Positions 5,197 through 20,943 of a stretch of 64,000 bases of DNA are shown one piece after another. How positions within the stretch are numbered: the stretch's first letter is position 1; every line of letters begins with the position of its first letter. The stretch lies in the IMG/VR virus record IMGVR_UViG_3300035152_000011; one strand, given 5' to 3'. Under the pieces are notes generated by a model. That model was not told where the DNA came from, made no database searches, and was given only the letters and a program-made list of their open reading frames with translations. A program made the translations under genes and the position numbers. The stretch is from a virus.

Positions 5197-5580
5197 ATGG
5201 CGCGCTACGCTGGCATCTTTCTGGTCCGTGATGACGGCGCTATTCTGCTCGCTAGACGCTCTCAACACGTCTCGGAGCCAGGCTGGTGGTCGATCCCTGG
5301 TGGCGCGGCAAGACTCGGAGAGCGGCCCATAGCAGCCGCCTTGCGCGAGTTTGGTGAAGAGATGGGCAGCGTCCCACCACTCCAGCTCGTGAGCGCACAC
5401 CCGGTTCGGATTCCGAAGGGCGTATTCACAACCGTCCTGGCTACCATACCGACCAATGTCGGTACGAATTGGCAGCCGCGGCTCAATTGGGAGCACGACA
5501 ACTGGGGATGGTTCCACGTCGGGCAACTTCCCCGTCCACTGCATCCAGGCGTCAGCCTGTTCGTCCGCGGAGAGAACTAA
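5197..5580 (+). CDS. NUDIX hydrolase
   Basis: Nudix box GGAARLGERPIAAALREFGEEMG matches GX5EX7REUXEEXGU. Confidence 0.75.
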   Translation: MARYAGIFLVRDDGAILLARRSQHVSEPGWWSIPGGAARLGERPIAAALREFGEEMGSVPPLQLVSAHPVRIPKGVFTTVLATIPTNVGTNWQPRLNWEHDNWGWFHVGQLPRPLHPGVSLFVRGEN

Positions 5581-5612
5581 TGGCGCAGCGAAACGCGCTA
5601 CGAAGCCAGCTA

Positions 5613-5628
5613 GATCGTAGCTGCGATC
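5613..5628. promoter_or_regulatory. operator-like IR GATCGTAGCTGCGATC
   Basis: Followed by GGTAGACT, GGCAGC and ATG 5647. Confidence 0.5.
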
Positions 5629-5646
5629 CAGTGGTAGACTGGCAGC

Positions 5647-5856
5647 ATGCCTCGACGTCAACCGCGCTACAAAGACCCCTTCCAAGGCGTGAAGGCCGCT
5701 GAGCGTCTGGCCCGTGAGGGCAATTGTCCCGGCGCTGTCATGGTCTTCGGGAACCTTTCCCGCGACGCCGCGATGAATCACCCAGGATCGGATGAAGCAG
5801 CCAGTCAGGTCTTCGGTGATCTGATCCACTTCGGGTGCGTGCGCCGCATGCGCTAG
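5647..5856 (+). CDS. small hypothetical protein
   Basis: ATG immediately after GGTAGACTGGCAGC (leaderless-promoter motif) and operator IR 5613-5628. Confidence 0.4.
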   Translation: MPRRQPRYKDPFQGVKAAERLAREGNCPGAVMVFGNLSRDAAMNHPGSDEAASQVFGDLIHFGCVRRMR

Positions 5857-5864
5857 GAGGTCCC

Positions 5865-6308
5865 ATGCTTGTCCTCGGGTTCACAGATGAACAGCTCGAC
5901 GACCTCTATGACGCAGAGCGCTGGAGCGTCGATGAGCAGCAAGAGATCATCATCGACACGGCGCGGCCTGGTGGTTTCGACCGCATCTACGCTGCCTACC
6001 TTCGAGCGGGACGTACGCCGGACCGCGTACGCTACATGATCTACCTGGCCGACGGCGCGCGCCAGTATGACATGATCGAGGAAGCGCTTGCGATTCTCCG
6101 CCAGGCGACTCGCGGCGAGCTGGAAGAGATGCGGTACCGCGCCGAACCACCGCTACGCGAGCTAATCTCACAGGTCCAGAGAGAGAAATCTGGAGGCCGA
6201 CTCAAGCTAGCGGTCGGGCTCAGCTTCGTAGCCGCACTGGCCGGCGGCGTCTCCTACTGGTACTTCCGCAAGCCGAGGAGCAATGGCCTGCCGCCGGCCG
6301 CTTTCTAA
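5865..6308 (+). CDS. hypothetical protein with C-terminal TM anchor
   Basis: AGGAGG then ATG at 5865 (trimmed from 5835); C-terminal hydrophobic helix. Confidence 0.5.
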   Translation: MLVLGFTDEQLDDLYDAERWSVDEQQEIIIDTARPGGFDRIYAAYLRAGRTPDRVRYMIYLADGARQYDMIEEALAILRQATRGELEEMRYRAEPPLRELISQVQREKSGGRLKLAVGLSFVAALAGGVSYWYFRKPRSNGLPPAAF

Positions 6309-19779: not shown

Positions 19780-19784
19780 GGCTA

Positions 19785-19967
19785 TTATTTCCTCTCCGAC
19801 ACACGCGGCTGTCCCGTATGCGCATCCGTCGTCACATTGTAATGCTTGTCCACAGCACTTCGTTCCTCGCTCGTCAGCCCGCGCGTGTTTGGCTGGCCCG
19901 TGAGTTGATCAGTGCTGATTCTCTGCACTGCCCGGTCGGCGACTGTTTTGGTATCTGTTCCCATCAC
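19785..19967 (-). CDS. small hypothetical protein
   Basis: 60-aa ORF directly upstream of the MVP gene. Confidence 0.3.
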   Translation of the reverse strand: MMGTDTKTVADRAVQRISTDQLTGQPNTRGLTSEERSAVDKHYNVTTDAHTGQPRVSERK

Positions 19968-20016
19968 TCGTTTCCTCCTGCGCCCGCTAGTTGGCAGACC
20001 GCGGGCAATGTACTAG

Positions 20017-20472
20017 TTAGCTCTGACCTGCGTGGTTTTCTGCGATCTGGCGCTTGATGGTCTGCGCCGCGAATTCTAAGGCGTCGGCTAGGGTTCGAGC
20101 TTCTGAATCCCCGCCAACGACGAGTACGATCCCACACGGCTTGGCGTCCTGGGTCATGACCCGGACGGCCTCTACGGCCGTGTCGCCCGCATCATGCAGG
20201 ATGACGACGGTCTGGCCTCCATGCTTCGCTGAGCCACCACGAGGCACGTTGGTGCCGACCACGACTTCAAGCGCGTTCTCGCCTTTGAAGGTTTCGTGGT
20301 GAAGCGGGACGTTGCCCCACTCGGTGAACGTGCCGCGCGGCGTGGACTGCTTCCCCTTGTTCCTGAGATCGGTATCCGTCTGCATCCCATTATATCCTTT
20401 CGTCAGCCCTGCTCGCACCAGGGCCGTATCCCCTTGAACCATCACCCGCCCGAGTGGGCAACTTTTTTGCAA
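20017..20472 (-). CDS. hypothetical protein
   Basis: 151-aa ORF with a Rossmann-like Gly-rich core (VVVGTNVPRGGSAKHGG..VLVVGGDSEA). Confidence 0.4.
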   Translation of the reverse strand: MQKSCPLGRVMVQGDTALVRAGLTKGYNGMQTDTDLRNKGKQSTPRGTFTEWGNVPLHHETFKGENALEVVVGTNVPRGGSAKHGGQTVVILHDAGDTAVEAVRVMTQDAKPCGIVLVVGGDSEARTLADALEFAAQTIKRQIAENHAGQS

Positions 20473-20664
20473 TTACGTTACGCGCATTGGCCGTGTCGAG
20501 AGGATCTCGTGGTCGAGAACCTTCGGCCGGTCACCTAAGCCTTCCAATGAGTCCAGTGCCCGAGCAGCCGCTTTGTGAGAGGCTTCTCGCGCGTCCTTTG
20601 CCGACACCTCCACGACGACCTGCATGGCGACGCGGACGCGGACCTCGTATAGACGGTCAGGCAT
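20473..20664 (-). CDS. small hypothetical protein
   Basis: 63-aa ORF abutting neighbours. Confidence 0.3.
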   Translation of the reverse strand: MPDRLYEVRVRVAMQVVVEVSAKDAREASHKAAARALDSLEGLGDRPKVLDHEILSTRPMRVT

Positions 20665-20943
20665 CTACAGCTCTCCGTTCAGATATGCTGCGATAACATG
20701 TCCGTGACAAGGTTTCGGGACGCAGTGACATCCCAGTGTCTTGCCTCGCAGCTCCTCGACAGCCGCTCGAAACTCAGGGTCGTTCTCGACCCGTTCGAGG
20801 AAGTAGTTCTTGTACTGCTCGATCACCGCCATGCGGTCCTGGCCTGGCTTCGTGTGGAACGGGTTGCCGAACGGCGACGGCCGGCCGATGTACACGTCGT
20901 GCTGTTCACGATGCAGGTTGACCACACGCGTGAAATTCATGAC
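20665..20943 (-). CDS. DUF4326-like protein
   Basis: VYIGRPSPFGNPF...GCHCVPKPCHGHVI matches the DUF4326 signature; trimmed to internal ATG. Confidence 0.6.
   Translation of the reverse strand, partial: VMNFTRVVNLHREQHDVYIGRPSPFGNPFHTKPGQDRMAVIEQYKNYFLERVENDPEFRAAVEELRGKTLGCHCVPKPCHGHVIAAYLNGEL

Follow-up and report, generated by a model that had tools for sequence, protein, structure and literature searches.

Comparative evidence for a coupled SLOG–DUF4326 gene pair in the accessory gene array of a large uncultured tailed phage

We analysed 64,000 nucleotides of viral DNA (hereafter, the window) and found that, among five genes which a first-pass annotation had brought together as nucleotide-linked accessories with a shared counter-defence role, SLOG and DUF4326 are the only two with comparative evidence of joint action, probably on ADP-ribose-type molecules. 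With moderate confidence, we interpret the five as something other than one module: SLOG and DUF4326 would be coupled on an NAD+-derived ADP-ribose molecule, the CYTH protein would be a NeuTTM-type triphosphatase, the NUDIX protein a generic pyrophosphohydrolase and a further protein, DUF7768, deoxyribosyltransferase-like, with DUF1653 having no assignable function.

A minus-strand array in the replication and accessory arm

The region under study comes from the replication and accessory arm of a tailed phage that is uncultured, large (its contig spans 143 kb) and high in GC. All five ORFs proved to be real and to belong to the families first named for them, as judged by Pfam and, for CYTH, by likeness to 2FBL/3TYP and phrog_6660. 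They had been described as scattered; instead, four of the five share one tightly packed array on the minus strand, in an order conserved in relatives, and only NUDIX lies apart, in a separate plus-strand unit. The array also holds a DUF7768 gene that was absent from the earlier list. The features, with the evidence for each, are as follows.

5197–5580, plus strand: NUDIX hydrolase, 127 aa (PF00293, phrog_1198), just downstream of a 327-aa ORF (4193–5176)
7194–23575, minus strand: co-directional accessory or early-type gene array of ~25 tightly packed ORFs (ORF map, overlaps or short gaps)
9882–10355, minus strand: CYTH/triphosphate tunnel metalloenzyme, predicted NeuTTM type, 156–157 aa (homology to 2FBL/3TYP, motifs)
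11647–12006, minus strand: DUF1653 small protein, 119 aa (JGI/Logan call) or 101 aa (next ATG) (PF07866)
12543–12875, minus strand: DUF7768 protein, 110 aa, resembling nucleoside 2-deoxyribosyltransferases (DrHyd-like) (PF24963, E 3e-31; phrog_355, 2e-24)
16478–17044, minus strand: stand-alone SLOG domain protein of the YpsA/YoqJ clade, 188 aa (PF06908, AF2 model, Foldseek)
17143–19779, minus strand: major-vault-protein (MVP)-like gene, 878 aa, between DUF4326 and SLOG (PF11978 MVP_shoulder, 1e-28, plus Vault_3)
20665–20943, minus strand: DUF4326 domain protein, 91–92 aa (PF14216, 111-homologue alignment, AF2)

The array runs from a D5-like primase-helicase (21947–23575) to a 352-aa ORF (7194–8252), and its gene order is kept in at least six related contigs (among L003–L010 and L248). 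On the near-identical contig L248, an independent gene call agrees for NUDIX, CYTH, DUF1653 and DUF7768; SLOG is missing from that call because an antisense ORF was called in its place, and a similar antisense call may be why our search for contigs encoding the window SLOG protein returned none. A promoter and terminator scan gave one sigma-70-like site upstream of the array (23710–23682), a yield below chance expectation and hence uninformative, and positions 5000–21000 showed no nucleotide-level similarity to known phages.

SLOG and DUF4326 as a proposed coupled pair

The SLOG protein scores 39.7 bits against PF06908 (cut-off 27.7), which places it in the YpsA clade, and relatives were found on 399 IMG/VR contigs and in 272 phage records. 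Its AF2 model (pLDDT 91.8) has YpsA as its top PDB match (2NX2, Foldseek E 4e-11, TM 0.76–0.79), followed by ShosA, DprA, LOG and the SLOG domain of ThsA. Family-invariant residues comprise T6, G7, H8, R9, G44, G48, D50 (the GxD motif), W77, R111 and G132, with G48 and D50 invariant in an alignment of 114 sequences. With YpsA the window protein has the GxD/E signature in common (G48-A-D50), and its family carries the JGI name 'phage-like protein YoqJ'; unlike YpsA, it shows no gpsB linkage. Assignment as a LOG phosphoribohydrolase was rejected, as the catalytic Glu of PGGxGTxxE is absent (P-G-G-S-A-N-T-V in the window, GGTANCV as family consensus) and LOG structures matched the model only at E ~1e-3. 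Lacking this Glu, the protein could be either an enzyme or a binder.

The DUF4326 ORF spans 20665–20991 on the minus strand, with a likely start at an internal ATG or GTG that would end the gene near 20940/20943, and its product matches PF14216 at E 1e-26 (93.8 bits, cut-off 25). All residues invariant among 111 sequences (R20, G25-N26 and C71-x-C73-x-P75-x2-C78-H79) are present in the window protein, whose AF2 model reaches a pLDDT of 96.4. We rejected an identity with NADAR (DUF1768): hhalign against an alignment of 18 NADAR sequences gave a probability of 0.1%, and PF08719 was matched by 0 of the 111 members. A weak match to PF22751 (DUF488-N3a) was seen for 45 of these 111, and the family has been assigned to the rhodanese-phosphatase superfamily (PMC9503650).

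Neighbourhoods and fusions tie the two families together. Across 80 SLOG-centred IMG/VR loci, 25 had DUF4326 no more than 10 kb from SLOG, on the same strand in 24 and abutting SLOG in 4. Fusions are also recurrent: two proteins that are 45–47% identical to the window SLOG (P0094 and P0115) join DUF4326 to a YpsA-type SLOG, the best match among cultured phages, Myxococcus phage Mx1, has a gene annotated as a DUF4326 + SLOG fusion, and another SLOG clade, YAcAr (PF10686), is independently fused to DUF4326 (L088, L100 and L146; also L089 and L121). The link extends well beyond the lineage of the window. ADP-ribose-related domains also accompany SLOG, as a NADAR + SLOG fusion (P0065) and as WGR-PARP_reg-PARP, weak Macro-like and NADAR genes in ~16 syntenic SLOG loci, a neighbourhood confined to one phage clade and thus worth roughly one independent observation. 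The reverse association is weaker, with any SLOG present in only 10 of 80 DUF4326-centred loci; DUF4326 matches 2110 phage records (~4% of sequenced phages), against 272 for this SLOG.

This comparative evidence matches a prior published prediction, in which Iyer, Burroughs and Aravind (2021/2022) proposed that SLOG, DUF4326 and associated domains process ADP-ribose derivatives (PMC7824862, PMC9503650). The window shares with that predicted viral network (YpsA-like SLOG, DUF4326, NADAR, Macro and Nudix) the same families, a large phage, a YpsA-like SLOG, DUF4326 recurring as a neighbour of SLOG or fused to it, and NADAR and Macro-like neighbours in relatives. It differs in that SLOG and DUF4326 have a gene each, set 3.6 kb apart on either side of the MVP-like gene, and in that searches of the 64-kb window, including with profiles built from related loci, found no PARP, Macro, NADAR, ART or NAD-salvage gene; the published functions used for this comparison are predictions.

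A further parallel is ORF83, a phage SLOG-like protein reported as an anti-Avs (type III) factor, which is likewise a stand-alone Rossmannoid SLOG-type protein, was formerly annotated as DprA/Smf and has giant-virus homologues that carry a C-terminal DUF4326 (10.1101/2025.06.06.658234). Its proposed site, R89-N90...T112-x-D114, resembles R111-N112...T/S133-x-N135 of the window SLOG family, a possible correspondence drawn from published residue numbers.

From these observations we infer that the pair would most likely target a molecule derived from NAD+ and containing ADP-ribose, either soluble (a signal or a toxin) or attached to nucleic acid as an ADP-ribosyl adduct. The part of SLOG would be to bind this target or to cut a ribosyl N-glycosidic bond in it; DUF4326, rich in Cys and His, would act on a terminal phosphate or on the ribose-phosphate left over, and a host defence based on NAD+ or ADP-ribose would be blunted early in infection. 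The counter-defence role suggested at first for all five genes thus gains backing, in an NAD+/ADP-ribose-centred form, for SLOG and DUF4326 through their fusions and neighbourhoods, and none for CYTH, NUDIX or DUF1653. Nothing specific pointed to CBASS or Pycsar as targets: scans of the listed genes with Pfam, PHROG and PADLOC recognised no cyclic-nucleotide nuclease or sponge family and no match to the anti-CBASS, anti-Pycsar, anti-Thoeris or anti-type-III-CRISPR proteins Acb1, Apyc1, Tad1/2, Acb2 and AcrIII-1, and PADLOC returned only a weak, generic Nudix match.

CYTH, NUDIX, DUF7768 and DUF1653

The CYTH protein falls just under the Pfam cut-off (PF01928, 21.6 bits against 23.2) and was confirmed by full-length similarity to NE1496/NeuTTM (2FBL and 3TYP, E 5e-23) and by phrog_6660 (4.8e-19). 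It carries the ExExK motif as EIERK at residues 3–7 and the acidic E-V-E at 113–115 within LEVEF (112–116), and its Tyr29 and Lys53 align with the catalytic Tyr28/Lys52 dyad of NeuTTM (PMC3440374). Two other CYTH activities were rejected on diagnostic motifs. Class IV (CyaB-like) adenylyl cyclases have an HF motif four residues before ExExK, and thiamine triphosphatases a WxRxR motif with a stacking Trp (PMC8233210); the window protein starts (V)M-E-I-E-R-K, leaving no residues that could hold HF, and reads LRLRE at the WxRxR position. We therefore predict a NeuTTM-type triphosphatase, and nothing points to cyclic nucleotides. Like the specific inorganic triphosphatase NeuTTM of Nitrosomonas europaea, it is ~155 aa long and has ExExK, the acidic metal-binding motif and equivalents of the dyad; it differs in being phage-encoded. 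Relatives, CthTTM among them, hydrolyse NTPs as well (PMC3440374). The enzyme would be a metal-dependent triphosphatase acting on inorganic triphosphate, (d)NTPs or RNA 5'-triphosphates, and would be neither a cyclase nor a cyclic-nucleotide nuclease. The gene is conserved in L003, L005 and L007. Neither of the proteins encoded on its flanks (488 aa and 282 aa) is matched by sequence in Pfam or the PDB, which gives no pointer for or against an RNA-capping or RNA-repair context. Its annotation should read triphosphatase rather than cyclic-nucleotide enzyme.

Membership of NUDIX in its superfamily, defined by the box GX5EX7REUXEEXGU together with a PF00293 score above the gathering cut-off, is clear: the protein scores 64.5 bits (E 1.3e-17, cut-off 21.1), matches phrog_1198 (MutT/NUDIX) at 1e-18 and has an intact box by regular expression at residues 36–58 (G36-x5-E42-x7-R50-E51-F-x-E54-E55-x-G57), in which Ser occupies the last hydrophobic position. 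A catalytically competent pyrophosphohydrolase is predicted. Substrate-specific NCBIfam equivalogs (MutT 8-oxo-dGTPase, NudC NADH pyrophosphatase, RppH and others) were rejected, with best scores against cut-offs of 40.4 versus 245 for PRK08999, 22.1 versus 97.9 for MutT, 19.9 versus 158 for NAD+ diphosphatase and 30.5 versus 116 for RppH, from alignments that cover the box region only. Phage MutT/Nudix hydrolases include T4 NudE-type enzymes; the window protein resembles those of phrog_1198 in being a small, single-domain protein with a canonical box, lies below all substrate-specific cut-offs and shares no more than 43% identity with any Nudix protein of a cultured phage. In one relative (L009), a NUDIX homologue lies 5 kb from SLOG.

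DUF7768 matches phrog_355, a nucleoside 2-deoxyribosyltransferase family, and would be an enzyme or a binding protein resembling such transferases; 382 phage records match, at up to 65% identity, and the gene is conserved in L003–L005 and L007. The DUF1653 ORF spans 11647–12108 on the minus strand and belongs to PF07866 (E 4.7e-18, 65.7 bits, cut-off 23.5), with a weak match to the sole solved relative, 3BE3, itself uncharacterised. Fusions gave no clue to its function, since 18 of 18 homologues are stand-alone proteins of 68–120 aa carrying PF07866 only, and just 9 phage records match. The nucleotide link claimed for the five families accordingly fails for DUF1653, which has no known function or fused domain and should not count as a nucleotide-processing gene, and for DUF4326 the link is a published prediction only.

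Competing readings and what the pair would mean

A different reading, possible but in our judgement unlikely, replaces immune evasion by a role of the genes in synthesising phage DNA or in modifying DNA or RNA. In that case NUDIX would sanitise or reshape (d)NTP pools, CYTH remove PPPi or unwanted NTPs, DUF7768 hydrolyse or exchange deoxynucleotide bases, and DUF4326 and SLOG act on replication-linked nucleic-acid or nucleotide intermediates. The location agrees with such housekeeping, as the array starts at the primase-helicase and is flanked by genes for SNF2, PD-(D/E)XK, an AAA_24 ATPase, DNA polymerase, thymidylate kinase, helicase, Dam methylase and ribonucleotide reductase. So do the best structural matches of NUDIX, which are MutT-like or RppH-like, and the fusion of DUF4326 elsewhere to a T7-like RNA polymerase and its proximity to primase genes, which suggest a nucleic-acid role. 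A jumbo-phage survey likewise proposes CYTH and MazG as enzymes that break down unmodified NTPs, and DUF4326 as a bridge to components of replication and restriction-modification (PMC7824862). Against this, the fusions and neighbours of SLOG are NADAR, Macro-like and PARP rather than dNTP enzymes, NUDIX is far under the cut-offs for MutT, NudI and other equivalogs, and the scanned ORFs of the window included none that we recognised as belonging to a base-modification pathway.

We regard as improbable the idea that all the genes are unrelated passengers (morons) without a shared theme, brought together by common descent of one phage lineage. Complete synteny is indeed confined to contigs with 60–90% protein identity, phage frequency varies between families from 9 to 2110 records, and the five genes were not seen travelling together outside the lineage, with CYTH in 2, NUDIX in 1 and DUF1653 in 4 of the 80 SLOG loci. 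SLOG–DUF4326 fusions, however, have independent origins in two SLOG clades and turn up repeatedly in distant phages, which common descent of a single lineage does not explain; the passenger account looks untenable for this pair, and CYTH, NUDIX and DUF1653 may fit it.

Also improbable is that the host or DNA, rather than a small molecule, is the target of SLOG, which would serve as a cell-division inhibitor like YpsA or an ssDNA-binding, DprA-like recombination mediator. B. subtilis YpsA (2NX2) is the closest structure, and overproduced YpsA blocks FtsZ assembly, which raised the same question for its SPbeta prophage paralogue YoqJ (PMC6459960). For DprA, structures come next after ShosA, PF02481 gives a weak 26.6 bits and the array is replication-proximal. 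Yet identity to YpsA is only 19%, and YoqJ does not conserve the residues on which the division phenotype of YpsA depends (PMC6459960). The PF02481 score is under its cut-off of 29.6 and the structural likeness to DprA reflects the shared Rossmannoid core (TM ~0.6), so we rejected a DprA/Smf assignment; recurrent DUF4326 and NADAR fusions point instead to small-molecule or ADP-ribose chemistry.

The MVP-like gene had been noted as adjacent to SLOG, and this adjacency is real and kept in the close clade; it is mostly specific to that lineage and does not hold as a general module, since SLOG lay near MVP in only 9 of 80 MVP-centred loci, 4 of the 9 from the window's own clade. Single-sequence search found no close MVP relatives in IMG/VR, and an alignment query was needed to recover relatives. 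Synteny with the huge phages LR756500 and LR756501 was rejected, as tblastn found only MVP shared with the window, and a profile search placed beside that MVP a weak SLOG-like ORF unrecognised by Pfam. We consider it very doubtful that SLOG and DUF4326 join the MVP-like shell protein in a phage 'vault-like' ADP-ribose system, which in other large phages would extend to PARP, Macro-like, NADAR, TROVE and VWA genes. Such a system would recall the vault of eukaryotes (MVP, vPARP, TEP1/TROVE), with the MVP-like protein scaffolding or compartmentalising ADP-ribose writing and erasing during infection.

For the genes other than SLOG and DUF4326, our results are mainly corrective. If the preferred reading of the pair is true, namely coupled action on an NAD+-derived ADP-ribose molecule, SLOG–DUF4326 would amount to a counter-defence device widespread among phages and new to biochemistry, one that degrades or sequesters NAD+-derived immune signals or helps reverse ADP-ribosyl adducts. 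The independent fusions, together with the fused version in the culturable Myxococcus phage Mx1, offer a practical route to testing it.

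A compact minus-strand gene array

All five genes named in the first-pass annotation are present as open reading frames (ORFs) matching their assigned families, but its description of them as scattered was overstated, since four belong to one minus-strand series of ~25 tightly packed ORFs (23575 to 7194) that also holds DUF7768 and a major-vault-protein-like (MVP-like) gene. The relevant genes are:

21947-23575 (-): D5-like primase-helicase
20665-20991 (-): DUF4326
17143-19779 (-): MVP-like
16478-17044 (-): SLOG/YpsA
12543-12875 (-): DUF7768, matching PHROG phrog_355, named nucleoside 2-deoxyribosyltransferase; a sixth gene, absent from the earlier list
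11647-12108 (-): DUF1653
9882-10355 (-): CYTH
5197-5580 (+): NUDIX, outside the array in a separate plus-strand unit

Within the array, the D5-like gene and intervening ORFs are followed by DUF4326, two to three small ORFs, MVP-like, SLOG, about five ORFs, DUF7768, one ORF, DUF1653, two ORFs, CYTH and ORFs of 488 and 352 aa. Contigs with proteins 60–94% identical to those of the window share this gene order, and conservation among such close relatives carries little information on function. A more distant relative (L009) has a NUDIX homologue 5 kb downstream of SLOG on the same strand. DUF7768 is unusually conserved, with 60–65% identity to genes of Rhizobium, Alteromonas, Salmonella and Yersinia phages that all carry a "hypothetical" annotation. 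Two ORFs at 13569-14697 (-), one of them HTH_17, are missing from three lineage relatives (L003-L005), and a near-identical contig, L248, has at least the HTH_17 ORF; they mark a recent insertion or deletion within the array. In the close relative L004, an intein (Hom_end_hint, LAGLIDADG) splits the D5-like primase-helicase (L004 2590-5259), and the copy in the window is intein-free.

The window has ~61% G+C and carries a phage-type set of replication and nucleotide-metabolism genes. Besides the D5-like gene, it encodes SNF2 and PD-(D/E)XK proteins, an AAA_24 ATPase, DUF669, thymidylate kinase, a 1275-aa DNA polymerase, a helicase, ribonucleotide reductase, a Dam methylase, a TnpB-like protein and an RNase T-like exonuclease. 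The TnpB-like gene (47917-49152, +) is an OrfB_IS605 with a Cas12f1-like TNB domain, inside a phage genome. Three GNAT acetyltransferase genes (40725-41207, 54797-55312 and 59992-60402, all on the minus strand) fall within a 20-kb span, and GNAT also recurs beside SLOG in a PARP-carrying phage clade. A nucleotide-level search of positions 5000-21000 against known phages returned no match; related contigs came from IMG/VR, NCBI and Logan assemblies, and a JGI protein on a 143,385-bp contig is identical to the window SLOG protein.

CYTH, NUDIX and DUF1653

The CYTH protein falls slightly short of the Pfam cut-off (21.6 versus 23.2 bits), aligns over its full length with the solved NE1496/NeuTTM (E = 5e-23) and also matches phrog_6660. 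Judged by published determinants of CYTH subtype (PMC8233210, PMC3440374), it retains the ExExK motif (E3-I-E5-R-K7), the acidic E-V-E motif and, by alignment, the NeuTTM Tyr28/Lys52 dyad as Tyr29/Lys53. These features argue best for triphosphate hydrolysis, the probable substrate being PPPi or perhaps NTP or 5'-ppp RNA. Thiamine triphosphatase is ruled out because L-R-L-R stands where WxRxR would be expected, and class IV cyclase because no room exists for an HF motif before ExExK. Its motifs and alignment give no hint of a cyclic-nucleotide activity. Phage homologues are rare (24 records, several from huge or jumbo phages), and Pfam and PDB sequence searches with the proteins flanking CYTH gave no functional clue.

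The NUDIX protein (PF00293, E = 1.3e-17) carries a box, G36-x5-E42-x7-R50-E51-F-x-E54-E55-x-G57, that is predicted to be competent. It reached the cut-off of no NCBIfam equivalog, and the solved structures closest to it are those of MutT-like, RppH-like and DR1025-type enzymes, with alignments mostly restricted to the box.

DUF1653 (PF07866, E = 4.7e-18; 119 or ~102 aa according to other gene callers) matches one uncharacterized structure, 3BE3, and just 9 phage records. All 18 homologues inspected for fused domains stand alone, and the literature search yielded one incidental mention. There is no basis for counting it among the nucleotide-processing families.

Genomic association of SLOG and DUF4326

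We compared three sets of 80 IMG/VR loci, centered on SLOG (relatives in 399 contigs), DUF4326 (at least 559) and MVP-like genes (at least 113). DUF4326 lay within 10 kb of SLOG in 25 of the 80 SLOG-centered loci (24 on the same strand, 4 abutting). Counts for the other genes over the same distance, which like this one come from single-sequence searches less sensitive than profile searches, were 2 for CYTH, 1 for NUDIX, 4 for DUF1653, 6 for DUF7768 and 5 for MVP. Two SLOG homologues (P0094 and P0115) are DUF4326–SLOG fusions, as is the annotated protein of Myxococcus phage Mx1 (WNM70115.1), the best cultured-phage match to the window SLOG (42.6% identity). SLOG of any clade occurred in 10 of the 80 DUF4326-centered loci, including five fusions to, and three genes abutting, the YAcAr (PF10686) SLOG clade; T7-like RNA polymerase is also fused to DUF4326. 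DUF4326 is far more frequent than SLOG (2110 versus 272 phage records), which makes the association asymmetric. Homologues of SLOG or DUF4326 also occur in culturable phages such as Pectobacterium PP99 and Klebsiella KB2. Independent fusions with two SLOG clades provide good evidence that SLOG and DUF4326 share a substrate or pathway.

The Mx1 fusion (L247, OR576727.2, 55548-58564 of the record) sits within a tRNA-gene array and adjoins a TROVE-domain (Ro60/TEP1-like) protein, a VWA protein and peptidyl-tRNA hydrolase, a neighborhood that could represent an RNA-repair or RNP context.

The AlphaFold2 model of SLOG (PF06908, 39.7 bits), built from 114 homologues, has a pLDDT of 91.8 and best matches Bacillus subtilis YpsA in the PDB (E = 4e-11, TM 0.76–0.79), with further matches to ShosA, DprA, Moco carrier proteins, LOG and the ThsA SLOG domain. 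The LOG catalytic Glu is absent in a motif and alignment check, so the protein may act either as an enzyme or as a free-standing binder (sponge). On L248, the gene caller picked an antisense 135-aa ORF (3721-4128, -, equivalent to window 16691-17098, +) over SLOG, showing that automated annotation can miss this gene.

Relatives and alignment place the start of DUF4326 (PF14216, E = 1e-26) at an internal GTG/ATG, giving 91–92 aa. Its AlphaFold2 model (pLDDT 96.4) comprises three short strands and three helices, with the invariant C71-x-C73-x-P-x2-C78-H79 after strand 68–71; as modeled, this motif is as compatible with a CX5H active-site loop as with a Cys3His zinc site. PF22751 (DUF488-N3a), which is presumably linked to the rhodanese-phosphatase superfamily, was weakly matched by 45 of 111 DUF4326 members (best E = 0.0019), and we read this as tentatively consistent with the published assignment of DUF4326 to that superfamily. 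Foldseek with the DUF4326 model returned no match, and hhalign of the DUF4326 against the NADAR alignment was negative.

Proposed ADP-ribose and vault-like contexts

Clustering of SLOG neighbors revealed a syntenic phage clade of ~16 loci carrying WGR-PARP_reg-PARP, a weak Macro-like gene, NADAR, a calcineurin-like metallophosphoesterase and GNAT (among them L021, L025, L031, L035, L040-L045, L051, L059, L075 and L079, with SLOG at ~10001-10480). The gene set resembles a complete phage cassette for writing and erasing ADP-ribose. Combined with a NADAR–SLOG fusion (P0065), it connects the SLOG clade with ADP-ribose chemistry. This neighborhood represents in essence a single lineage, and ORF scans and profiles from related loci found no PARP, Macro or NADAR gene within the 64-kb window.

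The reported adjacency of SLOG to the MVP gene holds, the two abutting in the window's close clade. MVP-like relatives occur mostly in phages >100 kb. Among the 80 MVP-centered loci, neighbors included SLOG (9), DUF4326 (5), PARP (3), NADAR (1) and Macro-like (1), with any ADP-ribose-related neighbor in only 13. In huge phage LR756500 (L001, 12514-24456; L197), a PARP-like gene is followed in a row, after intervening genes, by MVP, a SLOG-like ORF and a Macro-like ORF. This row and the Mx1 TROVE/VWA genes recall the eukaryotic vault, which combines MVP with vPARP and TEP1; the statistics are weak, and a vault-like ADP-ribose system in phages is an improbable reading.

Viral YpsA-like SLOG, Macro, NADAR and Nudix domains were previously found to co-occur, and DUF4326 was proposed to process terminal phosphates of ADP-ribose derivatives (PMC9503650); a jumbo-phage survey reaches the same view (PMC7824862). 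The phage anti-Avs (type III) protein ORF83 is reported in a preprint as SLOG/LOG-like, with DUF4326 on its giant-virus homologues (10.1101/2025.06.06.658234). The genes described here are new members of families already known, and an ADP-ribose role for SLOG and DUF4326 restates an existing published prediction. The counter-defense role first suggested for all five genes is plausible for these two, may or may not extend to NUDIX, and is unsupported for CYTH and DUF1653. It can be sharpened to the hypothesis of a two-gene, ADP-ribose-directed pair, for which culturable test systems are available.
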